Shown one piece after another: positions 3,172 to 57,111 of a stretch of DNA of 64,000 nucleotides (positions within the stretch are counted from its first letter, which is position 1; each line of letters starts with the position of its first letter). Source of the stretch: Nannocystis sp. SCPEA4 (lineage in GTDB: Bacteria; Myxococcota_A; Polyangia; Nannocystales; Nannocystaceae); assembly GCF_026626685.1 (NCBI RefSeq), contig NZ_JAPNJX010000001.1:12752-76751 (forward strand), in the 5' to 3' direction. The notes beneath the pieces are model-generated. The model was not told where the DNA came from. It did not search any database and saw only the letters and a list, made by a program, of their open reading frames with translations. The position numbers were made by a program, and so were the translations under genes.

Positions 3172-3181
3172 CGCGATCGGC

Positions 3182-6032: not shown

Positions 6033-6090
6033 CCGTTCGCACATGTCCTCGACGGCATGTCTTCACCGACATGTCCTCCGCGACAGGACC

Positions 6091-9626: not shown

Positions 9627-9653
9627 ACGGTTCCCCGCCGCCCCGCCGCGGGC

Positions 9654-10382: not shown

Positions 10383-10385
10383 ACC

Positions 10386-13362: not shown

Positions 13363-13941
13363 TCGGCGCGATGATACCCATCCCGCCTGCGCCGCCGCGC
13401 GTGAAAAACACCCGCCCTGCTGCTCCCCGCGGGTCCTCCGCCCCGCCCGATCTCGCAGCGCGCCGCGCTCCCCCGACCGACCTGGCGTCTGGCCCCCGAT
13501 CGATCCGCGGACACACGCCCGCCGCACGACCCTCAACGCCGGCCCCACCCGCGGAGATCCCCGGGCACCTCGAGCGCCTTCGACGCCGGCCGCTCGACCT
13601 GCGCCGGGCCGGTCACGGCTCCGCCGGCTCCCCGATCACGATCGCCGCGCTCGATCCGAATCGCAGCTCGCGACATCCTCGCGCCGTTTCGTCACTCCCC
13701 CGATCGCGTCGCTGGCCGACCCCGATCGGGGCATCGCGCCGCCGCTACGTGACGGCAATGTCATCGCGCGATCACGGCGGTGCACATGCGCGTGCCGGAC
13801 CCCCGCAAGCGAGGCCCTCTGTCCTCCCCGACGACGCATCCGCACATCCCCGGGCAAGGGGCCCACGTCGGGGACTTGCCCTCATGAGGGGGATCGTGCG
13901 TTCATCGCCCCATGGTCTCCCCTCGTTTATCGGTCGCCAGC

Positions 13942-15351
13942 ATGGCCGTGTGTCTCCTCGTCGCCTGCGGCGACGACAACCGCGCCGACACCAGCGTCGG
14001 GCCTGCCACGGCCACTGTGACCGCGACGATCACCGTCGGCACCATCACTGCCACCGGCAACCCGATGACCGAGGGAGCCACTCAGGGCACGGGTCCGACC
14101 GAGGGGACCGCCTCGGGTGGTGACACCGAGGGCACCAGCGAGTCCCCCCCGACCACCAGCAACGGCTCGATGACGAGCATGACCACCCAGGGCGGCCCGA
14201 AGTTCGACCTCGGCGTCACCCCGGACGGCGGCACCAGCTGTGCCGGCAACATGGACATCGACGAGAGCTTCATCTGGATCCCCGCCACCAGCGACGGCCT
14301 CGTCTCCAAGATCAACACCCGCACCCTCGTCGAGGAGGCGCGCTACCTCACCGGTCCGAGCGGCGCCACCGAGAGCGTCTCGCGCACGGCCGTCGCCGGC
14401 GACGGTCGCTTCGTCGTCGTCAACGCTCGCGGCACCGGGCGTTCGACCGCCGTCGCCGCCAACATCGCCGATTGCATCGACTTCAACGGCGACGGCCAGA
14501 TCACCACCTCGACCAGCGTCGGCGACATCAAGCCGTGGGGCACCGACGAGTGCGTCGTGTGGACCATCCTGCACGCCAACTGGTCGGGCCAGTACGTCGA
14601 GGGTCCGCGCGGGATCACGTGGACGATCGGCGACTACGACAAGGCCACCTGCACCTACAAGAACCAGAAGGTCTGGCTCGGCTTCGGCGCCATGCAGGCC
14701 GGCTCGGCCAACATGGTCCGCCTCGACGGTGCCACCGGCGTGCTCGAGCAGTCGATCGAGGCCACGGCCTGGAACGGCAGCGGCTACGCGCCCTACGGCG
14801 GCGCCCTCGACCCGCAGGGCAACGCCTGGTTCACCGGTCTGCGCGGCGAGCTCGCGCGCGTCAACACCTCCGAGAACCCGATCACGATCACGCGGATCCC
14901 CCAGCCGTCCAACATCCAGACCTACGGCATGACCGTCGACCGCAACGGCAACCCGTGGATGGCCGGCTGCTCCGGCCCGGTCTCCACCTACGACGTCCCC
15001 TCCGCCCAGTGGATCTCGGTCGCCGGCACCAACGCCTGCCACCGCGGCATGGCCATCGACCACAACGACCACGCCTGGGTCGCCGCCAACGGCCCGTGCG
15101 GCCTCGTCGAGATCGATGTCGCCACCCGCACCCTCGTCGCCTTCCACAACCTCGCCCAGTGCTCGACCCCGATCGGCGTCAGCGTCGACATCGACGGCTT
15201 CGTGTGGCTGGTCGACCAGGCCGGCTGGGCGTGGAAGATCGACCCGATGAACGTCGGGGCGATGCAGAACATCCCCGTCGCCGGCGACCACTACGTCTAC
15301 TCCGACATGACCGGCGGCCAGCTCAAGAGCGTCACCCCGCCGCCGGCCTAG
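13942..15351 (+). CDS. lipoprotein with Thr/Gly-rich linker and beta-propeller-like C-terminal domain
   Basis: Lipobox MAVCLLVACG and a low-complexity TATVTATITVGTITATG linker. Repeated aromatic/Gly blades suggest an NHL/Vgb-lyase-like propeller. Confidence 0.6.
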   Translation: MAVCLLVACGDDNRADTSVGPATATVTATITVGTITATGNPMTEGATQGTGPTEGTASGGDTEGTSESPPTTSNGSMTSMTTQGGPKFDLGVTPDGGTSCAGNMDIDESFIWIPATSDGLVSKINTRTLVEEARYLTGPSGATESVSRTAVAGDGRFVVVNARGTGRSTAVAANIADCIDFNGDGQITTSTSVGDIKPWGTDECVVWTILHANWSGQYVEGPRGITWTIGDYDKATCTYKNQKVWLGFGAMQAGSANMVRLDGATGVLEQSIEATAWNGSGYAPYGGALDPQGNAWFTGLRGELARVNTSENPITITRIPQPSNIQTYGMTVDRNGNPWMAGCSGPVSTYDVPSAQWISVAGTNACHRGMAIDHNDHAWVAANGPCGLVEIDVATRTLVAFHNLAQCSTPIGVSVDIDGFVWLVDQAGWAWKIDPMNVGAMQNIPVAGDHYVYSDMTGGQLKSVTPPPA

Positions 15352-15696
15352 GCGCTCGAGAAACGCGCGCCCGAAGGCGCGGGGCCGTGGAGACCTGGGT
15401 GACGGCGGGCACGGAGCGGCGGAGCGGGTCCCTCGCGACGGCGGGGCCCTCCCAGGCAACGTGCTCGGCGCCCTCGGGCTTCGATGGCGAGCTGTCGTTG
15501 AGGACAGGTTCGTTCGTGCCTCGCGGACGATGGCGCCTGCGCGCGGTTGCCTGCGGCCCCTCCCGCCTGCGTCCCACTCCGCCGCTCCGTGCCCGCCTGC
15601 GAAGAGCGTCGCCGGCCCCGCTCGTCACCGTGCCGGAAGTTCACCGCCTCGCGGCGACTGCGGCGCGACCGACAGCGGACAGCCGCGGGACTTCGC

Positions 15697-15783
15697 AGGC
15701 CAACCTTCCAGACATGTCTCTCAGAACATGACTCTATAAACATGCTCTCATCGACATGTCGTTCATGACATGTCTCGATGTGG
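15697..15783. repeat. array of GACATGTC-family repeat units upstream of histidine kinase gene
   Basis: cagacatgtctctcagaacatgactctataaacatgctctcatcgacatgtcgttcatgacatgtctcg. Confidence 0.8.
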
Positions 15784-15953
15784 ACCCCGTCCAGCGCCGA
15801 CGTCCGCCTGCCTCCTCGGCGCCCGCTTGGCCCTCGGAGGCGGGCCCGCCCGGCGGCCGGCGGACCGTCCGCGCCCGCCTGGCTCGGCGGCAACACCGTT
15901 CTCGCCGGCCGCGCCCGGCCACCGGTCTGGACTCACGTATCCTTGGCGTCGTG

Positions 15954-18900
15954 CTGCTCCCGGCAGACTTTGCGGAGCTGATGGAAGACGGCCTCCTCCT
16001 CGTCTCGCGCGCCGGCGAGGTCCAGGACGCCAACAGCGCCGCCGAGCGCCTGCTGGGGGCCGCGCGGGTCGACCTCGTCGGTCGCGCCATCGGCGACCTG
16101 TTGCTCGTGCCCGTCCCGGGCCGGCTCATTGCCGTCTGCGCCGCCGAGCACGAGACCCGCTTGCACGTCTCGGACCTGCGCGGCGGCCGGCTCGCGCTGC
16201 GCGTCGTCCCGCGCGGCGAGGGCGTCTGGGCCTTTCTTCGCCGCGAGCGCGCCGAGATCGGCCCGGCCTCGCCGCAGGGGCGTGAGCAGCTGCGCACCGT
16301 CCTGCGCCACACCCCGGTCGTCCTGTTCGCTTGCGACGAGGACGGCGTGTTCACCGTCAACGAGGGCCACGGCCTCAACCGCCTCCAGGTGCCGACCGGA
16401 TCCAGCGTCGGCATTTCGATCTTCGACGCCTACGGCGACATCCCGTGGGTCGTCGACGCCGCCCGCCGGGCCCTCGCCGGCGAGTCGGTCTCGGCCGTCG
16501 GCCAGCTGCGCGGCGTGACCTTCGAGGCCTGCTACAGCCCGGTCTTCGCCGGCGACGGCCGGGTCATCGGCCTCGTCGGCGTCGCCCTCGACGTCACCGA
16601 GCGCGAGCGTGCGCTCGAGCGGCTCGCCACCAAGCGGTCGGTCCTCGACTACGTGCTCGCCCACGTCCCCCAGGCGATCTTCTGGAAGGACCGCCAGAGC
16701 CGCTACCTCGGCTGCAACGACCACTTCCTCCAGCGCACCGATCTGGCCAGCGCCGACGAGCTGATCGGCAAGACCGACCACGACATCTGCGCCTCGCGCG
16801 AGGAGGCCGACTTCTTCCGCGCCACCGACGAGCAGGTCATGAGCTCCGGCGTCCCGATCCTCAACATCGAGGAGCCGATGAAGCTGCTCGACGGCCGCGA
16901 GAGCTACCTGCTGACCAGCAAGGTGCCGATGCGGGACGACCGCGGCGAGGTCACCGGGATCCTCGGCATCTACGTCGATATCACCGAGCGCAAGCGCATC
17001 GAGCTCGAGCTGCAGCGGGCCAAGGAGGCCGCCGACGCCGCCCTGCGGGCCAAGAGCGAGTTCCTCACCACCATCAGCCACGAGCTGCGGACCCCGCTGG
17101 CGCTGATCCTCGGCCCGCTCGAGTCGCTGCTGCACGAGGGCGACGAGCCGCTCGGCGAGCGCACGCGCGCTGTCATGACCCGCATGTGGCGCAACGCCTC
17201 GCGCCTCGGCCGCCTCGTCGACGACATCCTCGACTATCAGAAGCTCGAGGCCGGCAAGCTGCACGCCGCGTGGGAGCCCGTCGACGTCCGCGACCTCGTC
17301 GAGGGCATCGTCCTCGACGCCGAGCCGGCCGCCGACGCCGCCGGCCTCAGCCTGCGCCACGAGCTCGCGCCGGGCCTCGGCACCGTCCCGCTCGACCGGC
17401 ACATGTTCGAGAAGATCCTCCTCAACCTGCTCGGCAACGCCCTCAAGTTCACCCCCGCCGGCGGCAGCATCACCGTCACCCTCGATCCCGTCGCCGACCG
17501 ACACATGCGCCTCGCCGTCCGCGACACCGGCCCCGGCATCGCCCCCGAGGAGCACGAGCGGGTGTTCCAGCGCTTCCAGCAGCTCGACAGCTCGATGACC
17601 CGCAAACACGAGGGCACCGGCCTCGGCCTCGCCCTCGTGCGCGAGTTCGCCGAGGAGATGGGCGGCACCGTCTCCCTGCGCAGCGCGCCCGGCGAGGGCG
17701 CCTCTTTCACCGTCGAGCTGCCGATCGACGCCGATCGCCTCGCCACCGTGAGACCCGTCCCCGAGCGGCCCGCCCCCGCGCGTGCGAGCCCCTTCGAGGT
17801 CGTCCGCCGCGAGCAGCCCCCTGCCCGCACGCCCGACCGCCCGCGCCTCGTCGTCGCCGAGGACAACCCCGACATGGCGGGCTACATCGCCGGCATCCTC
17901 GGCGACGACTACGCCATCGAGCTGGTCGGCAACGGGGCCGACGCCCTGCGCGCCGTCCAGGCCCGCCGTCCCGACGTCGTCCTCTCCGACATCATGATGC
18001 CGGAGATGGACGGCTACGAGCTCGTCGCCCGCCTCAAGCGCGACCAGTCCCTGCGCGACGTCCCGGTCGTCCTCCTCAGCGCCAAGGCCAGCCGCGACGA
18101 GACCGTCCGCGGCCTCGAGGTCGGCGCCGACGACTACCTGCCCAAGCCGTTCGCCCCCATCGAGCTGCGCGCGCGCCTGGCCGCGGCGCTCCGCCTGCAC
18201 CGCACCCACCTCGAGGTCGTCCAGCAGAAGCACGCGCTCGAGCAGGCCCTGCGCACCCTCGAGGACACCCAGCAACAATTGGTGCAGTCGAGCAAGATGG
18301 CCGCCGTCGGCACGCTCATCGCCGGTCTGTCGCACGAGCTCAACAACCCGGTGGCGATCATCCGCATGAGTGCGCAGATGCTGCTGCGCCGCAACCCTCG
18401 CGACCCGTTCGTACGCCGCACCCTCGAGCGGATCGAGCGTCACTCGCAGCGCTGCGCCGCGCTCGTCGAGACCCTGCTCGCCTACTCGCGCCGGCGGCCG
18501 ACCATCCCCGAGCGCTGCGACCTCGGCCAGATCCTCACCTGGCTCGTCGACCTCGTCCGACCCGAGGCCGAGGAGCGAGGCATCCGCCTCGTCGTCGACG
18601 CCGGCGACGGCACCTTGCCCGCGCTCGTCGTCCACCGTCCCGCGCTCGAGTCGGCCCTGCTCAACGTCTTCGGCAACGCCGCCGACGCCACCGGTCGCGG
18701 CGGCACCATCGAGATCGCCGCCCGCCCCGCGCCCGGCCCCGACGGCCGCGACGGCGCCGAGATCGTCGTCGGCGACAGCGGCGTCGGCATCGAGCCCGAG
18801 GCCCTCTCGCACCTGTTCGAGCCGTTTTACACCACCAAGGCCCCGGGCAAGGGCACCGGCCTCGGGCTGCCGATGACGCAGAAGTTCGTCCAGTCCCAGG

Positions 18901-25515: not shown

Positions 25516-25659
25516 GCCCGCGAGACGACGCGGCGGACGAGCGCTCCGCCCGCCGCGTGTCCCCCACCGGCTTCGTCTGTCCTTTCGGCCACCGGATCGG
25601 TCGACGACCGAGCGACACCGACCTGTCCTCCTGATCCGCGCCGTTCGACGTCGAGCCCG

Positions 25660-25840
25660 CCGGCCCGCTGTTCGCTGTCCTTGCGACCAGCCGCCGCCTC
25701 GACGACGAGCGCGCCGAGCCGGCGTCAGCTGTCCTTGCGACCAGCCACCAGCTCGACGACGAGCGGACCAAACGGCGTCAGCTGTCCTTTCGACCAGCCG
25801 CCTCGACCGACGAGCGCGGCCATCTGTCGCCTTTGCGACC
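25660..25840. repeat. three tandem copies of a ~54 bp direct repeat (ctgtccttgcgaccagccgccgcctcgacgacgagcgcgccgagccggcgtcag)
   Basis: Read directly from the sequence. Lies in a ~1.2 kb stretch with no convincing ORF between rlmE and typA. Confidence 0.8.
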
Positions 25841-28719: not shown

Positions 28720-28990
28720 CACGCCGGTTCGTCGGCGCGGCGCACGGCCGGCTCGGCGCCAGCTCGCCTGCGGCTCCAGCCGCTTTGCGGCGCCGCTTCT
28801 TCGCCCCGGTACGCTGCAGCGCCACGTCCTGTGCCGCGACACCGTAAAGCGGCTCGCCCACTGCTCCAGCCGCCTCGCCCCACCGCATGCCTGGTGCGCT
28901 GCAGCGCCCCGGCCGATGCCGCTGCGGCGCACTGCCGGCTCGCCTGCGGCTCCAGCCGCCTCGCCCCACCGCATGCTCGCACCGTGCGCG
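28720..28990. repeat. degenerate ~65 bp direct repeats (gctcgcctgcggctccagccgcctcgccccaccgcatgc...ggtgcgctgcagcgcc), 3-4 copies
   Basis: Read directly. On the minus strand they produce repeated MRWGEAAGA(V/A)GEP pseudo-ORF translations. Located between typA and the downstream lipoprotein gene. Confidence 0.75.
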
Positions 28991-33499: not shown

Positions 33500-33547
33500 G
33501 TTGCATTCAAGGACATGTCCTTCACGACATGTCCTGAAAGACCTCAG
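33493..33547. repeat. GGACATGTCC-family units between convergent genes
   Basis: ttgcattcaaggacatgtccttcacgacatgtcctgaaagacctcag. Confidence 0.75.
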
Positions 33548-39867: not shown

Positions 39868-40503
39868 CTAGCGGCGCCGCCGGCGATCGCCCGAGTCGGT
39901 GTCGATGATCCGGATGTTGCCGAGGGTGTAGCCGGTGTAGGCGCGCACGACCGAGTCGAAGCGGACGCTACCCGACACGATCGCGGTCCCGTTGGCGTCG
40001 TTCCAGCTGTAATTGACGACGAGCGAGTTGTCGGTGGCGGTGGCGACCGACTGGTCGACCGTGTAGCCGGCCTCCGCCTTGACCCGGATGTCGATCTTGC
40101 CGATGTTGTCGACGATCTGGGTGCGGCCCTGGTTGACGGCCTGCTTCCAGACCCGCTCGTAGGTGTCGTCGGCCGGGTCGAGCAGGGTCACGGTGCCGGT
40201 GGTCTCCGCCGGGTCGAAGATGTCGCGGGCGACCTTCTGCACCGTCGCCGGCACGTCGGGCTCCGGGTTGCCGACGAGCTTGACGGTCAGGACGCCGATG
40301 GTCGCGCCGAACGAGTTGCGGAACGCCATCTTGTATTTGGTCTTCTCCTCCGGCGTGCTCGCGCTCTCGTCCTCGAACGTGATCGCCGTCCCCGTCAGGT
40401 TGGTGGTGAACGTCGCGTTCATCTCGAGGTCGAGGTCGCTCACGGGCCCCGCGGTGATGCCCGTCTTGCTGAGCACATCTCGCTTCATCTTCGGTGTCGG
40501 CAT
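39868..40503 (-). CDS. hypothetical protein with C-terminal poly-Arg tail
   Basis: 211 aa and Thr/Val-rich, predicted beta-rich. Ends DRRRRR. Local GC is lower than the flanking genes. Confidence 0.45.
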   Translation of the reverse strand: MPTPKMKRDVLSKTGITAGPVSDLDLEMNATFTTNLTGTAITFEDESASTPEEKTKYKMAFRNSFGATIGVLTVKLVGNPEPDVPATVQKVARDIFDPAETTGTVTLLDPADDTYERVWKQAVNQGRTQIVDNIGKIDIRVKAEAGYTVDQSVATATDNSLVVNYSWNDANGTAIVSGSVRFDSVVRAYTGYTLGNIRIIDTDSGDRRRRR

Positions 40504-40742: not shown

Positions 40743-43711
<2,969 letters not shown>

Positions 43712-43927
43712 ACCGGCATGGTATCAAGGCCCGGCGCCGTTGTGGGCCGGGCCGGGTGCGGAGCCCCGTTTGCAGGCGAGCGGCTGCGCCGCCGTCCGGG
43801 CCGACGCGCACGAGATTCGCGGCGCACGCCGTGCGTCGCGGGGGTGTGCGGTCGTCTTCGCGGCCCGTCGGCGCCGCGCCGCGGGAGGCTTGACTCCGCG
43901 GCCCTCCGGGCCTGAAAACCTCGGGCG

Positions 43928-45187
43928 ATGCACGCCCGCGATCCCGAGCTCTCCGCCGCCGACCCCGAGATCTTCGCGCTGATCGAGCAGGAGGACGCGC
44001 GCCAGCGCGACAGCCTGCGCCTGATCGCCAGCGAGAACTACGTGTCCAGGGCCGTGCTCGCGGCCACCGGCAGCAGCCTCACCAACAAGTACGCCGAGGG
44101 TTATCCGGGCAAGCGCTACTACGAGGGCATGGACTTCGTCGACCCGATCGAGTCGCTCGCCGTCGCCCGCGCGCGCGAGCTGTTCGGGGCCGACCACGCC
44201 AACGTGCAGCCCTACAGCGGTTCGCCGGCCAACCTCGCCGCGCTGCTCGCCCTGTGCCAGACCGGCGACACGATCATGGGGCTCAGCCTCCCCGCGGGCG
44301 GTCACCTCACCCACGGGTGGAAGGTCAGCGCCACCGGCATCTACTACAAGGCCGTCCAGTACGGCGTCCGCCGCGACGATCACCGCATCGACCTGGACGA
44401 GGTCCGCACCCTCGCGCTGACGCATCGCCCCAAGCTCATCTGGGTCGGTCACTCCGCCTACCCGCGCCAGCTCGACTTCGCCGGCTTCGCCGCGATCGCG
44501 CGCGAGGTCGGGGCTTACCTCGCGGCCGACATCGCGCACATCGCCGGCCTCGTCGCCGGCGGCGCGCACCCGAGCCCGGTGCCGCACGCCGACGTCGTCA
44601 CCACCACCACGCACAAGACCCTCCGCGGCCCGCGCGGCGGCCTCATCCTCTGCAAGGCCGAGCACGCCGCCGCGATCGACAAGGCCGTGTTCCCCGGCCT
44701 GCAGGGCGGCCCGCACTGCCACACCACCGCCGCCAAGGCGGTCGCCTTCCGCGAGGCGCTGCAGCCGAGCTTCCGCGACTACGCGCAGCAGATCGTCGCC
44801 AACGCCCGCGCCCTCGCCGAGGCCCTGATCGCGCGCGGACACACCCTCGTGTCCGGCGGCACCGACAACCATCTCCTGCTCGTCGATCTCACGCCCACCG
44901 GTCATGGCGGTCGGCACGTCGCCCGGGTGCTCAACCGCTGCGGCATCGAGCTCAACGCCAACGCGATCCCGTTCGACCCGCGCAAGCCGTTCGACCCCTC
45001 GGGTCTGCGGATCGGCCTGGCCGCGATCACCTCGCGCGGGATCCAGACCCACCACATCCCGCACGTCGCCGACCTCATCGCCGACGGCATCGGCCTCGCC
45101 GTCGCCAACGCCGACGACGCCCAGTGCGAGGCCCACCGCGCCCGCGTGCGCGAGTTCCTGCGCGCCTTCCCGGCCCCCGGCCTGTGA
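43928..45187 (+). CDS. glyA: serine hydroxymethyltransferase
   Basis: [17 protein letters not shown]-lysine motif and full-length SHMT. Confidence 0.93.
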
Positions 45188-45198
45188 CCGCCACGTCG

Positions 45199-46380
45199 AT
45201 GCAGCCGTACCCGATCACCGCCATGGCCCTGTGCAACGGCATGGGCGACAGCACCGCCGCCGTGCTCGCGGCCCTGCGCGCGGGTCGCTCCGGCCTCGGC
45301 CCGTGCCCTTCCGACTTCGAGCTCGACGCGGTCGTCGGCGCCATCCCGACCCCGCTGCCGCCGCTGCCCGGCTTCCTCGAGCCCGTGCGCGACACGAGGC
45401 AGACGCGGATCGCCGCCGTCGCCCTCGCCGAGCTGCAGGCCCCGCTCGCCCGCGCTTGCGCCCGCTGGGGCGCCGATCGCGTCGGCGTCGTCCTCGGCAC
45501 CAGCACGGGCGGCATCGAGGCCAGCGAGGGCGCCTACGCCCACGCCCAGGCCCACGGCGGCGCCCTGCCGGCCCACTACGACGTCGAGCTCTCGCACGCC
45601 CTCGACGCCGTCCTCCACCTCGCGCGCGTCCTCGGCGGCGGCCTCGCCGGCCCGGCCTACGTCGTCTCGACCGCCTGCTCCTCGAGCGCCAAGGTGTTCG
45701 CCTCGGCCCAGCGCCTGCTCGCCGCCGGCCTGTGCGACGCCGTCCTCGTCGGCGGCGTCGACAGCCTGTGCCGCCTCACCGTGCGCGGCTTTGCTGGCCT
45801 CGAGGTCCTGTCCTCAAAGCCATGTCGTCCGTTCTCGCGCGAGCGCGCCGGCATCAACATCGGCGAGGGCGCCGCGCTGCTCCTGGTCGAACGGACAGGT
45901 GAGGGTCCGGCCCGCCTGCTCGGCGTCGGTGAGAGCAGCGACGCCTACCACATGACCAGCCCGCACCCCGAGGGCCTCGGCGCCCGTCTGGCGATGGAGC
46001 GCGCGCTGAAGCTCGCCGGCCTTTTCGCCGCCGACGTCGACCACGTCAACGCCCACGGCACCGGCACCAAGCAGAACGACAGCATGGAGAGCCAGGCGAT
46101 CCGGTCCGTCTTCGCCGGCGCGCCCGCGCCCGCCGTGGTCGCCACCAAGGGCTACACCGGGCACATGCTCGGGGCCGCCGGCGCCACCGAGGTCGCCTTC
46201 GTCGTCGACGCCATCGCCCACGGTTACCTGCCGGCCAGCGTCGGTGCCGACCCGCTCGACGAGGCGCTCGGCGTCGACGTCGTCACCGCCCGCCGCGAGC
46301 AGCCGACCCGCGCCGCCCTCAGCAACTCGTTCGCGTTCGGCGGCAGCAACTGCAGCGTCCTCGTCGGAGGCCCGGCATGA
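45199..46380 (+). CDS. beta-ketoacyl-ACP synthase (KS, FabB/FabF-like)
   Basis: Active-site STACSSS, plus HGTGT and NSFAFGGSN motifs. A GTG at 45184 would overlap the glyA stop. Confidence 0.88.
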   Translation: MQPYPITAMALCNGMGDSTAAVLAALRAGRSGLGPCPSDFELDAVVGAIPTPLPPLPGFLEPVRDTRQTRIAAVALAELQAPLARACARWGADRVGVVLGTSTGGIEASEGAYAHAQAHGGALPAHYDVELSHALDAVLHLARVLGGGLAGPAYVVSTACSSSAKVFASAQRLLAAGLCDAVLVGGVDSLCRLTVRGFAGLEVLSSKPCRPFSRERAGINIGEGAALLLVERTGEGPARLLGVGESSDAYHMTSPHPEGLGARLAMERALKLAGLFAADVDHVNAHGTGTKQNDSMESQAIRSVFAGAPAPAVVATKGYTGHMLGAAGATEVAFVVDAIAHGYLPASVGADPLDEALGVDVVTARREQPTRAALSNSFAFGGSNCSVLVGGPA

Positions 46381-47168
46381 GCGCGCTCGCCTTCACCGTC
46401 CGCGGCCTCGGCTTCTGGGCCCCCGGCTACCCCGACCTCGCCGCCTGGAAGGCCCGCCTCGACGCCTGTCCCGAAGACCAGAGTGCCACGCCGAAGGCCG
46501 AGCTCTTGCCGCCGATGATGCGCCGGCGCACCAGCCTGCTCACCCGCATGGCCGCCGAGGTCGCGGCCCAGGCCCTGCGCGCCGGCGGCCTCGATGCGAC
46601 CGGCGCCACCCTCGTCTACGGCTCCGTTTACGGCGAGATCCGCACCACCCTCGACCTCCTGGCCGCCCTCCTCGTCGCCGGCGAGCCGCTGTCGCCGACC
46701 AAATTCCACAACAGCGTCCACAACACCGCGGCAGGCTACGTCTCGATCGCCACCGGCAGCCGGGCCGGCAACGCCGCCCTCTCGGCCGGCCGCTCCACCC
46801 TCGCCATGGGCCTGCTCGAGTGCGCCGCGCTCGTCGCCGCCGGCGAGGGCGACGTCGTGCTCGTCCTCGCCGAGGAGCCCCTGCCCGAGCCGCTGGCCGC
46901 CGGCCGCCGCTGGGGCCCGTTCGCCGCCGCCTTCGCCCTGTCGGCGCCTGGCTCTTCGGACATGCCCGTGACGACATGTCGCCTGGAACAGGGCCCCAAC
47001 GACATGTCCCTCGCGCCAGCACGTCCCGCGCCGGCGTGGCTGGCCGACAGCCCGTGCGCCGCCGCGCTCGCGCTGGTCGACGCCCTCGCCGCCGGCGCCC
47101 CGGGCCGCGTCGCCCTCGAGCCGCACCTCGCCGCCGGCTGGCAGTGCGCGCTGGGGGCGGGGGCATGA
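46377..47168 (+). CDS. KS-like chain-length-factor-type protein (no active-site Cys)
   Basis: 263 aa thiolase-like N-terminal half (TKFHNSVHNTAAGYVSIATGS). ATGA overlap with the KS gene. Confidence 0.65.
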   Translation: MSALAFTVRGLGFWAPGYPDLAAWKARLDACPEDQSATPKAELLPPMMRRRTSLLTRMAAEVAAQALRAGGLDATGATLVYGSVYGEIRTTLDLLAALLVAGEPLSPTKFHNSVHNTAAGYVSIATGSRAGNAALSAGRSTLAMGLLECAALVAAGEGDVVLVLAEEPLPEPLAAGRRWGPFAAAFALSAPGSSDMPVTTCRLEQGPNDMSLAPARPAPAWLADSPCAAALALVDALAAGAPGRVALEPHLAAGWQCALGAGA

Positions 47169-47599
47169 CCGCCGCGTTCGCGCCGGTGGCCGAGCTGGTC
47201 CCGCAGCGCCCGCCGATGCTGCTCGTCGACGAGGTCCTCGCCGCCGACGACGACGCCATCACCTGCGCCGCCGTCGTCCGCCCCGACAACCTGTTCGCCG
47301 TCGCCGGCCGCGTGCACGCCTCCGTCGTGCTCGAGTACATGGCCCAGGCGATCGCCGCGTTCGCCGGCCTGCGCGCGCGCGCCGACGGTCAGCCGCCCGC
47401 GCTCGGCATGATCGCCGCCTGCCGCAGCCTCGAGCTGCACGCCGAGCACCTCGCCGTCGGCGACGCGCTGCAGATCGTCGCCACCCGCGTGTTCGCCGGC
47501 GCCATGGCCGAGTACCAGGCCGTCGTCACCCGCCGCGGCGAGCCGTTCGCCGAGGCCGTCCTTCACGTCGTCACCACCGCCCCCGGGAGCCCCGCATGA
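47165..47599 (+). CDS. hotdog-fold 3-hydroxyacyl-ACP dehydratase-like protein
   Basis: 144 aa with FabA/FabZ/ApeP-like length and hydrophobic pattern. ATGA overlaps on both sides. Confidence 0.6.
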   Translation: MTAAFAPVAELVPQRPPMLLVDEVLAADDDAITCAAVVRPDNLFAVAGRVHASVVLEYMAQAIAAFAGLRARADGQPPALGMIAACRSLELHAEHLAVGDALQIVATRVFAGAMAEYQAVVTRRGEPFAEAVLHVVTTAPGSPA

Positions 47600-48318
47600 A
47601 GCCGCGCGCCCTCGTCACCGGCGCCAGTCGAGGGATCGGCGCCGCGATCGCCGAAGCCCTCGCGGCCGCCGGCCACCCGATCGTCCTCAACTACCGCAGC
47701 GACGACGCCGCCGCCGAGGCCGTCGCCGCCAGGATCCGCCAGGCGGGCGGCGAGGTCGTCCTCAGCCGCTTCGACGTCGGCGACGACGCGGCGGCCGACG
47801 CCGCCATGGCCGCGATCCTGGCCGATCCGCGGCCCCTCGGCGTCGTCGTCAACAACGCCGGCATCGCCCGCGACGCCCCGTTCCCCGCGCTCGAGCGGGC
47901 CGACTGGGAAGCTGTCCTTCGGACCAGCCTCGGCGGCTTCTACAACGTCACCCGGCCGGTGATCATGCCGATGGTGCGACGCAAGTGGGGCCGGATCATC
48001 ACCATGAGTTCGGTCTCGGCGCAGATCGGCAACCGGGGGCAGGTCGCCTACGCCGCAGCCAAGGCCGGCGTCATCGGCGCGACGAAATCGCTTGCGCTCG
48101 AGCTCGCCCGCAAGGGCGTCACCGTCAACGCCGTCGCCCCCGGCCTCGTCGACACCGACATGATCAAGGACGTCCCGCTCGAGCACGTCATGCCGCGGAT
48201 CCCCGCCCAGCGGCTCGGCACCGCCCGCGAGGTCGCCGCGCTGGTCGCCTTCCTCGCCACCGACGAAGCCGCGTACGTCACCGGTCAGGTGATCGGTGTC
48301 AACGGCGGCATGGTATGA
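47596..48318 (+). CDS. fabG: 3-oxoacyl-ACP reductase (SDR family)
   Basis: TGASRGIG, NNAG and YAAAKAG catalytic motifs. Confidence 0.9.
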   Translation: MKPRALVTGASRGIGAAIAEALAAAGHPIVLNYRSDDAAAEAVAARIRQAGGEVVLSRFDVGDDAAADAAMAAILADPRPLGVVVNNAGIARDAPFPALERADWEAVLRTSLGGFYNVTRPVIMPMVRRKWGRIITMSSVSAQIGNRGQVAYAAAKAGVIGATKSLALELARKGVTVNAVAPGLVDTDMIKDVPLEHVMPRIPAQRLGTAREVAALVAFLATDEAAYVTGQVIGVNGGMV

Positions 48319-48325
48319 CGCGGTC

Positions 48326-49525
48326 ATGCACGACGTCGTGATCGTCGGCGCCGGCCCAGCCGGTTCGACCGCCGCCAACTTGCTCGCCCAGGCCGGCGTC
48401 CGCGCGCTCGCGCTCGACAAGGACGTCTTCCCGCGGTTTCACATCGGCGAGTCGCTGCTGCCGATCGACCTGCCGATCTTCGCCCGCCTCGGCGTCGCCA
48501 TGGATCGCTCGCGCTGGCAGTACAAGCAGGGCGCCGAGTTCATCGACGAGCGCACCGGCGAGTTCGCTTTCTTCAGCTTCGCCGACGGCCTCGACGGCAC
48601 GCCGCCGCACGCCTGGCAGGTCGACCGCGCCGCCTTCGACACCATGCTCGCCGACCTCGCGGTCTCCCGCGGCGCCGACATCCGCTTCGGCGAGCGCGTC
48701 ACTGACATCGAGTTCGCCGACGATCACGTCCGCGTCGTCACCGACCGCGGCGAGCACCGGGCCCGCTTCCTCCTCGACTGCACCGGTCAGGACGCCATGC
48801 TCGGCCGCGGCGCCCGCACGATCGCCCCGCTGCACGAGCTCGGGCGCGCCGCCGTCTTCTGTCACTTCGACGGCCTCGCGCCCGACGTGCAGGCCGAGCT
48901 CGGCGAGCAGGGCAACATCAAGGTCCTGATCGTCGAGGACGGCTGGCACTGGCTGATCCCGATGCACGGCGGCCGGCTCAGCGTCGGCCTCGTCAAGTGG
49001 CGCGGCAAGCTCGACGACGACGCCTTCGAGGCCGCCCTCGCCGCCTCGCCGCTGTGTCGGCGGCTCACCGCCGGGGCCACGCGCAGCGCCTCGCGGACGA
49101 TCCGCAACTGGAGCTACAAGAACACCCGCCCCTCCGGTCCGCGCTGGGCCTGCGTCGGCGACGCCTGCGCCTTCCTCGACCCGGTGTTCTCGTCGGGCGT
49201 TTCGCTGGCGATGTTGGGCGCCGAGCGGACCGTCGACCTCCTCGTCCCGGCCCTCGCCGCCGGACGCGAGGCCGACCCCGATCTCATGGCTCCCGTCCAC
49301 GCCACCATGCAGATCGCCTACGACAGCTTCGAACAGCTGATCCGCCGCTTTTACCACACGCGCCTCGTCTCCCACCTGTTCTTCGCCCGCACACCCGACC
49401 CGCAGCTGCGCCGTGGCCTCATCAGCATGCTCGCCGGCGACGTCTGGCGCGACGACAACCCGTTTCAGGACATGCTCCGCGGGTCACGCGTCCAGCCGCA
49501 GCGGGTGGCGAAGCCGGACGAGTGA
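48326..49525 (+). CDS. flavin-dependent halogenase (tryptophan-halogenase family FAD monooxygenase)
   Basis: VVIVGAGPAGS dinucleotide fold, the diagnostic GWHWLIP (GWxWxIP) motif, and FLDPVFSSGVSLA. Confidence 0.78.
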   Translation: MHDVVIVGAGPAGSTAANLLAQAGVRALALDKDVFPRFHIGESLLPIDLPIFARLGVAMDRSRWQYKQGAEFIDERTGEFAFFSFADGLDGTPPHAWQVDRAAFDTMLADLAVSRGADIRFGERVTDIEFADDHVRVVTDRGEHRARFLLDCTGQDAMLGRGARTIAPLHELGRAAVFCHFDGLAPDVQAELGEQGNIKVLIVEDGWHWLIPMHGGRLSVGLVKWRGKLDDDAFEAALAASPLCRRLTAGATRSASRTIRNWSYKNTRPSGPRWACVGDACAFLDPVFSSGVSLAMLGAERTVDLLVPALAAGREADPDLMAPVHATMQIAYDSFEQLIRRFYHTRLVSHLFFARTPDPQLRRGLISMLAGDVWRDDNPFQDMLRGSRVQPQRVAKPDE

Positions 49526-49605
49526 CTGCAGCTCTTGTAAGCTAGATCGCAATTTTGGCAATACGCCGCCCCCTGAACGGGCTCGGGCTCCAGGGTGGTT
49601 GCGTG

Positions 49606-49618
49606 TGCAATCATTGCA
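49606..49618. promoter_or_regulatory. perfect palindrome TGCAAT-C-ATTGCA upstream of fibrinogen-like lipoprotein gene
   Basis: Read directly. Sits in a locally AT-enriched spacer. A second TTGCAAT-like half-site lies about 55 bp upstream. Confidence 0.45.
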
Positions 49619-49665
49619 ATTTCACGCTTCCCATTGTTCCCTGACTCGCACAGGGAACGAGTCGC

Positions 49666-50907
49666 ATGCACGAACGGATCCTTCCTCGCATCCGGGTCGG
49701 GGTCGCCGGGCGTATGGGCGGCGGGGTGCTGGCCGTGGCGCTCGCAGGCTGCCTCGATCGCAACGCCGGACTGGACGATCCGACCGTCGTCGAGCCCTCG
49801 ACCGGCGACAGCAGCAGCAGCAGCAGCGGCTCGACCACCGTCCCCGGCATCATGACCACCACGGTCGACTCGGGTCACGGCGGCAGTGACAGCGACGGCA
49901 CCACCGCCGAGCCTGTGCCCGAGCCGTGCGGCAACGGCAAGATCGACCCGCCCGAGCTGTGCGACCAGGGCGAGGCCAACTCCGACGCGGGCGAGTGCAC
50001 CCTCGCCTGTCGCTGGAACGTGTGCGGCGACGGCCGTGTCCACGCCGGCGACGAGGCCTGCGACGACGGCCCCGACAACGGCAAGTACGGCCACTGCGAC
50101 ATGAACTGCGACGGCCCGGCCGAGCGCTGCGGCGACCTCTCGGTGCAGACCGACGAGGGCGAGCTGTGCGACGAGAACGACCCGCACTTCGCCTGCCTCA
50201 AGGAGTGCACGTGGGCGACCTCGTGCACCAACATCAAGGCCAGCTGGGGCGACGAGGCGACCACCGGCATCTACCTCATCCGCCGCATGAGCCAGTTCTT
50301 GACCGTCTGGTGTGACATGGACGCCGACGGCGGCGGCTACACCTTCATCAAGTACGCCTCGGGCACCGTGCTCGACGACCACAACGACCCGGAGTACCCG
50401 TTCAGTCCGATCTACCTCTCGGCCCTGCAGGCCGAGCAGAAGTGCGGCTACTGGGGCTTGCGCCTGTTCGCCCCGCGCAGCCCCGAGCACCTCGCGGCCG
50501 CGGTCGGGGCCGCGAACGCCAAGCAGTTCGCCCCGATCCAGAAAGACACCCTGTTCCCGCCGTATCCGGAGATCGACAGCGACGTCGAGGGCTACCTGTC
50601 GATCATGGGCGTCTATCCGGTCACGCCCGGCACGAGCTGCGTCGGCAAGGCGCTCAACAGCGAGGCCTGCCCCGAGTGGGCCATACGGCCCGATCCTCTG
50701 CAACCCGACGTCGTCCTGCCCTACTGGGTCAGCGACAAGCCGATCGCCGGCCAGCCCGGCACCAACAACTGCGCCGACTGCTCGCTCTACTACCAGTGGA
50801 ACAAGCTCGCCCAGCCGCCCGTCATCACCGGCTACCTGGCGCTCAAGAACGCCACCAGCGCGCACTTCCTGTGCGAGCTCGGCGACAAGCTCGGCCCCCC
50901 GGGCTGA
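49666..50907 (+). CDS. lipoprotein with Myxococcus cysteine-rich repeats and a C-terminal fibrinogen-related (FReD) domain
   Basis: Lipobox LAVALAGC. CGNGxxDxxExCDxG / CGDGxxxxGExCDDG repeats. C-terminal WCDMDADGGGYTFIKY is close to the fibrinogen C-domain signature. Confidence 0.7.
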   Translation: MHERILPRIRVGVAGRMGGGVLAVALAGCLDRNAGLDDPTVVEPSTGDSSSSSSGSTTVPGIMTTTVDSGHGGSDSDGTTAEPVPEPCGNGKIDPPELCDQGEANSDAGECTLACRWNVCGDGRVHAGDEACDDGPDNGKYGHCDMNCDGPAERCGDLSVQTDEGELCDENDPHFACLKECTWATSCTNIKASWGDEATTGIYLIRRMSQFLTVWCDMDADGGGYTFIKYASGTVLDDHNDPEYPFSPIYLSALQAEQKCGYWGLRLFAPRSPEHLAAAVGAANAKQFAPIQKDTLFPPYPEIDSDVEGYLSIMGVYPVTPGTSCVGKALNSEACPEWAIRPDPLQPDVVLPYWVSDKPIAGQPGTNNCADCSLYYQWNKLAQPPVITGYLALKNATSAHFLCELGDKLGPPG

Positions 50908-51066
50908 GCCGCTGAGGCTGCTCGATCGAGCATGTCCTCTCGGTCAGCCGTCTCCGAGCCCGTCACTCGGGTGGAAGATCACGCAGCATCCGCAGCGGCG
51001 GGCCATCGGTCGCGGCGCAGGCCCGCGAGCGCCAGTCGAGCTCGAGGTTGGGCGACCCTGCGCCGC

Positions 51067-51663
51067 TCAGCCGAGCGCCAGCGTCTCGAGCAGTTCCACC
51101 ACCTCCGCGAGCGGCAGCCCGACCACGTTGGTGTAGCTGCCCTCGATCCGGCGCACCAGGCCCGCCGCCGCGCCCTGGATCCCGTAGGCGCCGGCCTTGT
51201 CGCGCCACTCCTCCGTGTCGAGGTAGCGATCGATCTGCGCCGGCGTCAGCGGCCGGAACCACACCGTCGTCGTCACCGCGAACGGGTGCCAGCGGACCTC
51301 GGGCCCGCGGGCGTCGGCGACCGCCACCGCCGTCGTCGTGAAGTGCGAGCGCCCGGCCAGGCGCGTCAGCATCGCGGCCGCCTCCGCCCGGTCGGCCGCC
51401 TTGGCCAGCGGCTCGATCTGTCCTTCGAGCCAGACCGTCGTGTCGGCCGCCAGCACCACCACACCTGGCCGCAAGGCCAGCTCCGCCTTGGCCCGCGCGA
51501 CCCGCTCGACGTACCTCGGCGGCGGCTCGTCGGGGAACCACGTCTCGTCGCAGTCGACCGGCGCGCGCGTGAACGCGATCCCGGCCGAGCGGAGCAGCTC
51601 GGCGCGACGCGGCGACGCCGACGCGAGGACGAGGATCGAGGAGGGCTGCGGCTGTCCGGACAT
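51067..51663 (-). CDS. maf: Maf-like nucleoside triphosphate pyrophosphatase
   Basis: LASASPRR, LAADT and AYGIQG motifs. Confidence 0.85.
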   Translation of the reverse strand: MSGQPQPSSILVLASASPRRAELLRSAGIAFTRAPVDCDETWFPDEPPPRYVERVARAKAELALRPGVVVLAADTTVWLEGQIEPLAKAADRAEAAAMLTRLAGRSHFTTTAVAVADARGPEVRWHPFAVTTTVWFRPLTPAQIDRYLDTEEWRDKAGAYGIQGAAAGLVRRIEGSYTNVVGLPLAEVVELLETLALG

Positions 51664-52096
51664 GGCCCGCGGATCTGCCGGATCGGCGGCCCGCGTGCAA
51701 CCGCCGCGGCAGCCGCACCTCGACGTCATGCGGCCTCGCGGGCGCGAACAGCTCCTCGGCACCCGCGAACGGCTCCCGCCCTCTGCGCTCCTGTTCGCGT
51801 CACGGGTGAACCTCTTCGTCCGCGCAGCGACGCCACTGCTCGCCTCGGCGGCGCCCAACTCACCGCGCCCCCGTCGCGCCGCGCCGCCCGGCCGATGTTC
51901 CGCGCAGCTTTCGCGGCGGCGCGCAAACTCGCTGCGCTCCCGTCACTTCGCGCCGCCCGGCCGATGTTCCGCGCAGCCTTCGCGTCGGCACGCCGGATCT
52001 CCGCGCAAGCGGCCGCTGCCGTGACGCGCGGCCGTTCACGCCGGCCCGGCGTCCGCACCTCCGGGCCGTGCGGCCGCGCGTGCTACCATCCCGGGC

Positions 52097-54085: not shown

Positions 54086-55423
54086 GTGTCTTCGCGCGGC
54101 GCGGCGTGCTATCGCAGGCCCGTGCCCAAGGCACCTCTGCTCGCTCCGCCCGGGCCGCCGACGCTCACCTTCCGCTGGGACGGCGCCGCCGTCGCCGCCT
54201 GTCCCGGCGACACCGTCGCCTCGGCGCTGATCGCCGCCGGCGAGCTCGCCACCAGCCGCAGCGCCAAGTACCGCCGCCTGCGCGGCCCGGCCTGCCTCCA
54301 CGGCGGCTGCGGCACCTGCCTGGTGCGCGTCGACGGTCGGCCCAACCAACGCGCCTGCCTCACGCCTGTCCGCGAGGACATGGTCGTCGAGCCGCAGAAC
54401 ACCTACGGCGGCCTCGACCCGACCGCCCTCGTCGACCAGATCTTCCGCCGCGGCATCGACCACCACCACCTCGTCGTCTACCCCCGGCTCGCCAACCAGA
54501 TGATGCAGGGCGTCGCGCGCGAGCTGGCCGGCTTCGGCGAGCTGCCCGACGCCCCGCCCGACGACGCCGCCGGTCTCTTCGACCATGTCCCCGAGGTCCT
54601 GGTCATCGGGGCAGGTCGCTCCGGGCGCGCGCTCGCGGCCGCCCTCGCCGCCGCCGGGCGCCCGCCGCTGGTCGTCGAGCGCCGGCCCGCCGCCGCCCTG
54701 CCCGCCGCCGGCCGCCCGGCCCACCTGCTCGCCGGCGTCGGCGTGTTCGCCTGCTACCCGCAGGAGCGGCTGTGGGCGGCCGCCTCCGAGCACCCGCCCG
54801 TGCTCCACCGGTTGCGCCCGCGCCACGTCGTGCTGGCCGTCGGCGCCCACGAGCCGACCATCCCGCTGGCCAACAACGACCTCCCCGGGGTCGTCTCGGC
54901 ACGTGGCCTCGCGGACATGCTCGAACAGACAGGTCGCCGCCTGGCCGCGCGCGTCGTCGTCATCGGCGAGGGCCCGCGCGCCGAGCTGCTCGCCGCCGGC
55001 CTCGGCGCCGAGCGGGTCGCCCCGGCGCGCGTGCACAAGCTGCTCGGCGCCCGCCGGGTCAAGGGCGTGCAGCTCGACGACGGCAAGATCCTCCGCTGCG
55101 ACCTCGTCGCCCTCGCCCCCGACCCGGCCCCCGCGTTCGAGCTGGCCGCCCAGGCCGGCGCGCCGATCCGCTTCACCGGGGCCGGCTTCGCCCCCGAGTG
55201 CGACGCCGACGGCCGGATCGCCGCCGGCCCGGCCGCCCACCCGCTCGAGGCCGCCGACGCCCAGACCGCCCCGCCGCCGCCGTGGACCCTGTGGGCCGTC
55301 GGCGAGCTGGCCGGCGCGACCACCCCCGCGGAGATCCAGGCCAGCGTCGACCGCTGCGCCGCCGCCCTCCTGCGCGCGCTCGCCGAGTCACCTGCCCCGA
55401 AGGACAGCCATGCCCGCGCCTGA
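54086..55423 (+). CDS. [2Fe-2S]- and FAD/NAD(P)-binding oxidoreductase subunit (HcnB / opine-oxidase A / sarcosine-oxidase-alpha-like)
   Basis: N-terminal ferredoxin-like Cys cluster (CLHGGCGTCLVRVDGRPNQRAC) followed by two Rossmann motifs (VLVIGAGRSG, VVVIGEGPRA). Confidence 0.75.
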   Translation: MSSRGAACYRRPVPKAPLLAPPGPPTLTFRWDGAAVAACPGDTVASALIAAGELATSRSAKYRRLRGPACLHGGCGTCLVRVDGRPNQRACLTPVREDMVVEPQNTYGGLDPTALVDQIFRRGIDHHHLVVYPRLANQMMQGVARELAGFGELPDAPPDDAAGLFDHVPEVLVIGAGRSGRALAAALAAAGRPPLVVERRPAAALPAAGRPAHLLAGVGVFACYPQERLWAAASEHPPVLHRLRPRHVVLAVGAHEPTIPLANNDLPGVVSARGLADMLEQTGRRLAARVVVIGEGPRAELLAAGLGAERVAPARVHKLLGARRVKGVQLDDGKILRCDLVALAPDPAPAFELAAQAGAPIRFTGAGFAPECDADGRIAAGPAAHPLEAADAQTAPPPPWTLWAVGELAGATTPAEIQASVDRCAAALLRALAESPAPKDSHARA

Positions 55424-55597
55424 GCCGCCGCGCCCGCACCTGTCCTCGCGGACAGCCCCCTCGCGTCCCGCGGCCCGGTCTCGTTCCCACATGTCCCCGC
55501 GGACAGCCCCCTCGCGCGGGCAGGCCCCGTGGTCGCACATGTCCCCGCGGACAGCCCTCTCCTCCCCTTCCGCTCACCCCCGGCTCCGAGGCCAACC
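55424..55597. repeat. three tandem ~45 bp units (acatgtccccgcggacagccccctcgcg...) in the intercistronic spacer
   Basis: Read directly. Each unit contains the ACATGTCC and CGGACAGCC motifs of the window-wide repeat family. Confidence 0.8.
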
Positions 55598-55893
55598 ATG
55601 ACCGCGCGCACCTTCGTCTGTCGCTGCGAGGACGTCACGCTCGGCGAGATCGAGCGGGCGATCGCCGTCGGCCTCGCCGACGTCGAGGAGATCAAGCGCT
55701 ACACCGGCCTCGGCACCGGACCGTGCCAGGGCAAGGAGTGCCTGTCGGCGCTCGGCCGCCTGCTGGTCGCCCGCGGCCTCGTGCCGGCCGCGGCGCTGCG
55801 GCCGTTCACCGCGCGCCCGCCGGTCGAGCCGGTCACCTTCGGCGCCCTCGCGGCCGGCGCCACCGGCCCCGACACTCCGGAGGATCCCTCGCC

Positions 55894-55897
<4 letters not shown>
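55598..55897 (+). CDS. BFD-like [2Fe-2S]-binding small subunit (HcnA/LhpE-like)
   Basis: About 99 aa with CRCEDVTLGEI and GTGPCQGKEC cysteine pairs. ATGA overlap with the next gene. Confidence 0.65.

Positions 55898-57111
<1,214 letters not shown>

Follow-up and report, generated by a model that had tools for sequence, protein, structure and literature searches.

Aryl-polyene (APE) clusters are among the most widespread bacterial biosynthetic gene clusters, and their products protect against oxidative stress. The described systems closest to the operon analysed here are the APE clusters (ApeA-ApeR) of Escherichia coli CFT073, Xenorhabdus doucetiae and Acinetobacter baumannii, the xanthomonadin-type clusters of Xanthomonas and Lysobacter enzymogenes (ORF16/ORF17; PMC3691225), whose product is a halogenated aryl polyene of the outer membrane (PMC3691225), and the contiguous clusters of Enhygromyxa salina and Nannocystaceae ST9; APE clusters had been noted earlier in Enhygromyxa (PMC6226438). 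The operon lies in a 64-kb stretch of the genome of Nannocystis sp. SCPEA4 (hereafter the window). A sequence-only reading had described it as glyA followed by genes for a ketosynthase (KS), a chain-length factor (CLF), a hotdog dehydratase (DH), a ketoreductase (KR) and a flavin-dependent halogenase, and had suggested a halogenated polyene or fatty-acyl product. Our analysis indicates, with a probability of roughly 78%, that the operon is the elongation and halogenation half of an APE type II polyketide synthase pathway that has been split into two loci in Nannocystis.

Taking the operon together with the second locus as read in N. bainbridge and N. exedens, the Nannocystis genes have in common with the APE clusters the KS/CLF pair, an ApeQ-type KR and an ApeI:ApeP dehydratase pair, as well as a ligase-loaded acyl carrier protein (ACP), LpxL-type and glycosyl transferases, a thioesterase, and LolA-like, MMPL and DUF3261 proteins; a ligase-dehydratase fusion, ApeH, is also present in the A. 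baumannii cluster (PMC8358021). They differ in lying at two distant loci, in lacking an ApeR-type KS and a second ACP at the loci read, in having a halogenase, and in having an ammonia-lyase, which implies a coumarate rather than a 4-hydroxybenzoate starter. In addition, the CLF gene adjoins the KS gene in Nannocystis, whereas in the APE clusters it lies at the other end of the cluster. The xanthomonadin-type clusters share the order of a KS followed by a short KS-like partner, with a halogenase beside the pair in many genomes, although identity between the Nannocystis halogenase and its proteobacterial counterparts in the loci analysed reaches no more than 33-40%. A XanB2-type chorismatase, i.e. 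the source of a 3- or 4-hydroxybenzoate starter, was found neither in the window nor in the second-locus regions examined (L090-L093); an aromatic ammonia-lyase was found instead. The contiguous clusters of E. salina and Nannocystaceae ST9 (L011-L016) contain orthologous genes in the same order (KS 57-60%, KR 62-63% and halogenase 51-54% identical), but they are in one piece, have the KR and the halogenase separated by an additional ApeR-like KS, and have no glyA or lipoprotein gene beside them. The Nannocystis genes therefore represent a halogenated, xanthomonadin-like APE cluster of known type in an unusual split layout, which differs from the known examples in the split itself, the absence of ApeR, a predicted transcriptional fusion to glyA and the gain of a lipoprotein neighbour.

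The assignment of the KS/CLF/DH/KR core to the APE/xanthomonadin type, as proposed from the sequence alone, was borne out by curated model cutoffs, by matches to APE structures and by motifs. The KS scored 440 bits against NF006618/PRK09185 (cutoff 407), and its best matches in the PDB were 7f28_B, i.e. AbApeO (255 bits), and 6qsp_A (XdApeO), with FabF structures reaching at most 181 bits; 7F28 is the AbApeO-AbApeC complex (PMC8358021). The catalytic Cys160 and the two histidines His286 and His322 were invariant in a five-sequence alignment. Housekeeping FabF/FabB/FabZ identities, of which a FabB/FabF placement of the KS/CLF pair would have counted against the earlier reading, were considered and rejected, as the scores fell well below the curated cutoffs (228 versus 494 bits for TIGR03150, the FabF equivalog; 136 versus 630 for NF005935; 20 versus 113 for NF000582). 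The CLF matched PF13723 (Ketoacyl-synt_2) with 136 bits, and its only PDB matches of any strength were 6qsp_B and 7f28_A, which are the CLF chains (XdApeC and AbApeC) of APE KS-CLF complexes. As expected for a CLF, there is no Cys at the KS active-site position, where Arg139 appears to stand opposite Cys160 of the KS in a local alignment, and the whole C-terminal half bearing the two histidines is missing. The operon thus encodes the combination of a KS and a truncated, Cys-less partner of the ApeO/ApeC type that is characteristic of APE clusters.

The 144-aa protein is a hotdog dehydratase of the ApeP-like family (PF22817, 49 bits versus a cutoff of 27), and its sole PDB match was 6qsr_B, from the Xenorhabdus APE dehydratase complex. 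In FabZ the catalytic His sits in a GHF motif, and the following reading of the ApeP and ApeI motifs rests on that knowledge of FabZ. The ApeP-like protein contains the Glu motif (LEYMAQ) and lacks the GHF motif; conversely, the ApeI domain of the Nannocystis bainbridge ligase fusion (P0287) contains GHF and lacks the Glu. This ApeI-like domain (PF22818) is fused to the ligase in both SCPEA4 (P0291) and N. bainbridge (P0287). Both families of the heteromeric ApeI:ApeP hotdog dehydratase are therefore present, with complementary His and Glu motifs, which suggests that the ApeP-like protein provides the Glu of a composite active site whose His-bearing ApeI partner comes from the remote locus. 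ApeH-ApeP is likewise listed as a heteromeric APE dehydratase (PMC8358021). At an N-terminal site that reads PHxxPM in almost all ApeP-like homologues (window 47198-47215, residues 12-17 of the ApeP-like protein) the sequence reads PQRPPM in Nannocystis and PQDPPM in locus L009.

The KR, which had been called an SDR (short-chain dehydrogenase/reductase) of the FabG type, passed the NF004200 cutoff (327 versus 273 bits) and fell below those of TIGR01831 fabG_rel (290 versus 339) and FlxB (272 versus 340). Its sequence is that of MCY1053492.1 and is 96% identical to the N. bainbridge protein. A flexirubin cluster was also considered and rejected, both on the FlxB equivalog score and because no DarA/DarB-like genes were seen at either locus.

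The halogenase matched PF04820 (E=4e-29) and has the GxGxxG (G8-G13), GWHWLIP (206-212) and FLDPVFSSG (283-291) motifs and a lysine, K67, all of which were invariant in 121 homologues. The diagnostic motifs reported previously (GWxWxIP and FxxPxxSxG, the latter in the form FxDPxFSxG) were confirmed in this way, and in alignments Lys67 coincided with the region of the active-site Lys in CndH, PltA and ChlB4, so that a place among non-halogenating monooxygenases, which the earlier reading had named as grounds against its halogenase call, was rejected. A geranylgeranyl-reductase-type enoyl reductase or a monooxygenase was rejected as well (TIGR02032, 108 versus 159 bits), given the invariant halogenase hallmarks. 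The top PDB match was 3nix (168 bits), followed by 8zop, CndH, ChlB4, 5buk, 5bul/5bva, CmlS and PltA; nine of the ten best matches are annotated as halogenases, the exception being 3nix itself, a Cytophaga hutchinsonii flavoprotein deposited only as a flavoprotein/dehydrogenase, which aligns over nearly the full length including the C-terminal region. The protein shares size, fold family, the Lys and both motifs with CndH, PltA, ChlB4, CmlS and 3NIX, although it lies far below the cutoff of the CmlS equivalog (143 versus 900 bits). Its cluster at 90% identity comprises N. exedens, N. pusilla, N. punicea, N. radixulma, RBIL2 and ILAH1. A 55%-identical homologue occurs in a different setting in a proteobacterial metagenome-assembled genome (MAG; GCA_022361175.1, locus L008, 4074-8072), beside a second halogenase, an amine-oxidase-like flavoprotein, a carrier protein, an AMP-binding enzyme and an AurF-like N-oxygenase; the halogenase clade therefore extends beyond polyene clusters.

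The absence of an ACP, an acyltransferase and an exporter from the operon, which the sequence-only reading had pointed out, holds for the whole window: none was found by Pfam searches of the 30 other called genes or by tblastn with 11 proteins of the remote locus, and a synteny comparison of the genes nearest the operon with the annotated N. bainbridge locus gave no partner genes. The proposed genome search for the absent partners was productive. Using the DUF3261 protein of Nannocystaceae ST9 as query, and then the ligase-ApeI fusion, we found a second locus in Nannocystis genomes with the order ACP, 196-aa membrane protein, ligase-ApeI, glycosyltransferase family 2 (GT2) protein, LpxL acyltransferase, aromatic lyase, 4HBT thioesterase, LolA-like protein, MMPL and DUF3261. 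In N. bainbridge and N. exedens this locus has no KS and the order stops after DUF3261. In N. bainbridge it lies on contig JAQNDL010000002.1 and the operon on JAQNDL010000004.1; it is also present in two Nannocystis MAGs. In SCPEA4 we located the ligase-ApeI protein (P0291) on a contig of 462,776 bp, separate from the 1,797,159-bp contig that carries the operon. The second locus of N. bainbridge and N. exedens therefore encodes both the dedicated ACP and the aryl-acid ligase that are absent from the window, with the ligase protein seen in SCPEA4, and the LpxL-type acyltransferase, GT2, LolA-like, MMPL and DUF3261 proteins that the window also lacks lie at the second locus of the closest genomes. 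The split was shown for Nannocystis and one more MAG: look-ups for the MAGs of loci L004-L007 gave L094 (the same contig as L015) and L096, the latter being a further MAG with the KS-less half. No ACP was found near any of the split cassettes.

A genome scan with the KS alignment gave 80 loci, and these revealed how the two halves are arranged elsewhere. In beta- and gammaproteobacteria, KS-CLF, usually with DH-KR, stands at the end of full clusters, and more than 50 proteobacterial loci have ACP-ligase-acyltransferase-LolA-MMPL upstream of KS-CLF(-DH)-KR, with variable placement of GT2. In E. salina SWB005 (L013) the genes from ACP to DUF3261 occupy 80-9879 and are followed from 10001 by KS-CLF-DH-KR, a second KS and the halogenase; in Nannocystaceae ST9 (L012), Pfam searches upstream of the KS identified an LpxL-type acyltransferase, an aromatic lyase, a LolA-like protein, two MMPL proteins and DUF3261. 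An Anaeromyxobacteraceae locus has a phosphopantetheinyl transferase, an acyltransferase, two ACPs and a ligase downstream. The ancestral order was contiguous, and because the two halves adjoin in E. salina with the same gene order, the Nannocystis cluster reads as the Enhygromyxa cluster cut exactly between DUF3261 and KS. The gene content predicts that the two halves depend on each other, i.e. the remote locus has no condensing enzyme or reductase and the window has no carrier or loading enzyme. The ApeR-type second KS and second ACP were absent from the split Nannocystis cluster at the loci read. Loss of the second KS would be tolerable, because ApeO-ApeC can elongate the polyene to full length by itself in vitro (PMC8358021) and deletion of apeR does not stop E. 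coli from making the APE lipid (PMC8253772).

These assignments suggest the following pathway. The remote aromatic amino-acid ammonia-lyase would convert tyrosine to p-coumarate, which the aryl-acid ligase fused to the ApeI domain would load onto the dedicated ACP; a 4-hydroxyphenyl head group derived from tyrosine is predicted because an ammonia-lyase occurs together with a coumarate-type ligase. The ApeO-like KS/ApeC-like CLF heterodimer from the window would then add malonyl units, the FabG-type reductase would act on each beta-keto group, and the ApeP-like protein with the remote ApeI domain would carry out the dehydrations, so that repeated cycles would build a conjugated polyene on the ACP. 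The halogenase would add Cl or Br to the phenol ring, most plausibly to this head group; the site is probably ortho to the hydroxyl, and the reaction probably takes place on the ACP-bound substrate. Finally, the remote thioesterase, acyltransferase, glycosyltransferase, LolA-like, MMPL and DUF3261 proteins would link the product to a lipid and deliver it to the outer membrane.

The features of the locus are listed in Table 1. All six open reading frames of the operon lie at the coordinates first given, with a third-position G+C (GC3) of 0.93-0.97; the G+C content of the window is ∼72%, and a gene model based on third-position G+C gave 54 genes. The co-directional arrangement and the four four-base overlaps noted earlier are present in the sequence (GTGA at 45184-45187; ATGA at 46377-46380, 47165-47168 and 47596-47599). 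The overlap sites are thus real, but the first of them is less likely to be used: KS homologues from five lineages align from the Met at 45199, 11 nt past the glyA stop, which makes this ATG the more likely KS start than the GTG at 45184. RefSeq WP_276598606.1 has the shorter form (393 aa) and GenBank MCY1053489.1 the longer (398 aa). The halogenase starts 7 nt after the FabG stop, and its close homologues are all 399 aa long. No intrinsic-terminator-like site was found by the terminator scan on the plus strand inside the block, including the glyA-KS gap. The scan of 43500-51100 found no promoter-like site and a single terminator-like site, on the minus strand, which is about the number obtained in shuffled controls; Rfam and tRNA scans of the window gave no matches, and no riboswitch was found ahead of glyA.

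Table 1. Features of the Nannocystis sp. SCPEA4 operon and its downstream flank (positions in the window).
Feature	Position	Strand	Evidence
glyA, serine hydroxymethyltransferase, 419 aa	43928..45187	+	NF000586, PF00464
ApeO-type elongating ketosynthase, 393 aa (398 aa with GTG 45184)	45199..46380	+	NF006618/PRK09185
ApeC-type chain-length factor, 263 aa, truncated KS-like, Cys-less	46377..47168	+	PF13723
ApeP-type hotdog dehydratase subunit, 144 aa	47165..47599	+	PF22817
ApeQ-like 3-oxoacyl-ACP reductase, FabG family, 240 aa	47596..48318	+	NF004200
Flavin-dependent halogenase, carrier-protein-substrate type, 399 aa	48326..49525	+	PF04820
Palindrome TGCAATCATTGCA, candidate operator/promoter element	49606..49618	no strand	sequence reading
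Lipoprotein, fibrinogen/intelectin-like C-terminal domain, 413 aa	49666..50907	+	NF040941, profile

The region is fully syntenic with N. bainbridge from trpE to a MiaB-like gene and 91% identical to it. We used this pair of genomes to compare the ratios of nonsynonymous to synonymous substitution (dN/dS), taking glyA as the yardstick as dS is compressed at a GC3 near 95%. The values were 0.21 for glyA, 0.31 for KS, 0.39 for CLF, 0.61 for DH, 0.10 for KR, 0.24 for the halogenase and 0.81 for the lipoprotein. By this measure KS, KR and halogenase show housekeeping-level constraint, and because their values resemble that of glyA the cassette does not seem to be decaying.

The gene downstream of the operon encodes a lipoprotein with an LAGC lipobox, a Ser/Thr-rich linker and Cys-rich CGxGxxDxGEECDDG repeats, which scored 31 bits against NF040941 GGGWT_bact (cutoff 30). 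A single-sequence AlphaFold2 model was unusable (pLDDT 34) and a sequence profile was compared with the PDB instead; built from 10 homologues, it matched the N-terminal subdomain of intelectin-1, fibrinogen beta and others with E ∼1e-7. The protein diverges fast (60-64% identity to N. bainbridge by alignment, 64% over the codon alignment). One or two copies directly follow the cassette in four split lineages, i.e. Nannocystis itself (L003, 11362-12588), L004/5 (L004, 11434-13941), L006/7 (L006, 11323-13836) and L010 (13413-15867), the last being Myxococcales MAG HK-STAS-MYXO-17, in which the region 9959-17236 contains KS-CLF-DH-KR and, directly after it, two lipoprotein genes, with no halogenase. 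None was found beside the contiguous Enhygromyxa/ST9 clusters L011-L016, and two MAGs carry a 33%-identical homologue ∼6 kb past the second locus. Ahead of the lipoprotein gene there is a 140-nt AT-richer spacer containing the palindrome TGCAATCATTGCA; its half-sites TGCAA/TTGCA are kept in locus L001 (N2 spacer) and in N. bainbridge (N3 spacer), with diverged flanks. An 8-bp stem, GTTCCCTG/CAGGGAAC, lies at 49636-49658, just before the lipoprotein start, and palindrome and stem are a possible operator and leader structure. The suggestion that the lipoprotein might or might not belong to the locus can therefore be refined: it is kept as a neighbour in four split lineages and the palindrome half-sites are kept, but it is absent beside the contiguous clusters. 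Its association with the cassette looks non-random on this distribution, although the four lineages may be related to one another and the family changes quickly. One speculative interpretation, to which we give little weight, is that the cassette, once split off, entered into a new functional partnership with the fibrinogen/intelectin-like surface lipoprotein(s) behind it; for example, the lipoprotein could be a dedicated outer-membrane receptor, carrier or covalent acceptor for the halogenated polyene lipid. If true, it would be a protein partner not described for any APE system.

The first gene of the operon is a bona fide serine hydroxymethyltransferase (SHMT) gene, as had been stated, with a full-length match (residues 12-415) well above the curated NF000586 cutoff (574 versus 335 bits), a PF00464 match of E=1.8e-152 and 94% identity to N. 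bainbridge. Its tight coupling to the cassette had been called unusual. The adjacency is real, but it is a matter of synteny rather than of a role in the pathway: glyA is directly upstream of the cassette only in Nannocystis (L003), and otherwise accompanies it only in L010, where a 73%-identical glyA lies after the cassette on the opposite strand, i.e. convergently. A functional part for glyA in the pathway, e.g. in supplying glycine, serine or one-carbon units for the product, would be in keeping with the junction to the KS (an 11-nt gap or a 4-nt overlap depending on the KS start, and 27 nt from glyA stop to KS start in N. bainbridge), with the terminator-free gap and with the glyA that also adjoins the L010 cassette. 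We nevertheless regard it as very improbable, as no glyA was found within 10 kb of the cassette in L004-L009, L011-L020 or the proteobacterial loci, the L010 copy is accompanied by trpD/trpC, as in the window, which points to an inherited neighbourhood, the protein is a standard, full-scoring SHMT under housekeeping-level constraint, APE chemistry has no glycine, serine or folate step (PMC8253772), and no methyltransferase is encoded at either locus. The comparison therefore favours glyA as an ordinary housekeeping neighbour and its coupling as lineage-specific synteny. The adjacent glyA may still matter for expression: every split lineage has a co-directional gene shortly ahead of the cassette (gaps of 11-128 nt), which fits the capture of a promoter once the cassette had been cut from that of its own cluster, and in Nannocystis the cassette would be co-transcribed with glyA, whose promoter was probably captured and supplies transcription into it.

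Two further explanations concern the cassette itself. It could work independently of the remote APE genes, drawing on the housekeeping AcpP for the synthesis of a halogenated acyl chain, either unsaturated or 3-hydroxy, that works with the fibrinogen-like lipoprotein or is attached to it. This would account for the lipoprotein gene(s) that directly follow the cassette in each of the four split lineages despite otherwise different flanks, for the retention of KS-CLF-DH-KR and two lipoprotein genes in L010, which has no halogenase, for the absence of such a lipoprotein from the contiguous clusters, and for the want of an ACP near the split cassettes. However, the ApeP-type subunit, having no catalytic His motif, is expected to depend on ApeI, whose only gene is at the remote locus, the remote locus has no KS of its own and would be useless without the cassette, and the gene order is conserved on either side of a clean break. 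The lipoprotein, moreover, is near-neutral and has its own spacer with a conserved palindrome, and the four lineages may not be phylogenetically independent. We consider independent function unlikely on this balance. Even less probable, in our view, is that the cassette is a decaying remnant of cluster breakage that makes nothing, which would be consistent with partners at a separate locus, the loss of the second KS of Enhygromyxa, the relaxed dehydratase subunit and the repeat copies inside the CLF gene; against this, the reading frames are all intact and the catalytic residues retained, KS, KR and halogenase have dN/dS values near that of glyA, the named Nannocystis species of the halogenase cluster share at least 90% identity in that protein, and the remote half is intact in N. 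bainbridge and N. exedens.

The reading of the operon as half of a split APE pathway also has points against it. The link between the two loci comes from gene comparison, and the organisation of the second locus in SCPEA4 is extrapolated from N. bainbridge and N. exedens, with the ligase protein itself seen in SCPEA4. The ApeP-like protein is the least constrained of the enzymes and in Nannocystis has Gln in place of the His of PHxxPM that most homologues keep, although this His is probably not the catalytic one. A flavin reductase gene is not encoded nearby. Finally, the split lineages have gained a conserved lipoprotein neighbour that is missing from the contiguous clusters, which would allow for a changed role of the cassette.

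Several other observations were made in the window. The palindromic octamer GACATGTC occurs in 20 copies (0.8 expected), e.g. at 280-320, 6041-6094, 10290-10380, 15711-15774, 33512-33533 and 46973-47008, mostly in intergenic tandem arrays with a 14-nt period and a consensus of approximately GACATGTCCnnnnn. Two exact copies lie 28 nt apart in the CLF gene (46973 and 47001), in a variable loop common to N. bainbridge. Three (R/K)DMS(A/S)GT peptides occur in the linker of the N. bainbridge ligase-ApeI fusion and, read at the protein level, may be encoded by the same repeat. Longer tandem repeats of 2-3 copies each were found in gaps of the gene model at 25645-25822 (54 nt), 28808-28976 (86 nt), 51846-51993 (69 nt) and 55437-55561 (51 nt). 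The other genes are housekeeping or unrelated and include gcvT, gcvH, TldD/PmbA, a hybrid histidine kinase, TatD, FtsJ, BipA, a TetR regulator, an aldo-keto reductase, two Ser/Thr kinases, Maf, a YggS-like protein, sarcosine-oxidase-like genes, a metallo-beta-lactamase-type (MBL) hydrolase and a MiaB-like enzyme, as well as seven minus-strand genes headed by trpE, which we read as a trp operon. Glycine and one-carbon genes that do not adjoin glyA are gcvT, gcvH and a class-V aminotransferase (1553-5346), and the sarcosine-oxidase-like set Fer2_4, SO_alpha_A3 and DAO at 54122-57111 is also apart from it. A 211-aa protein is encoded on the minus strand at 39868-40503, between trpE and a Ser/Thr kinase; N. 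bainbridge has a 211-aa gene with no recorded Pfam match at the same position.

The second locus removes the puzzle of a polyketide core that has no ACP, acyltransferase or exporter. In a table of a 2016 review, N. exedens is given two "arylpolyene" regions (PMC4902002), which may correspond to the two halves described here. The predicted product in Nannocystis is a chlorinated or brominated aryl-polyene pigment with a coumarate starter unit, which makes the locus a testable natural-product lead. The analysis also implies that an APE cluster can function, or is at any rate maintained by selection, when divided between two distant loci, which bears on the way in which such clusters are sought by genome mining.

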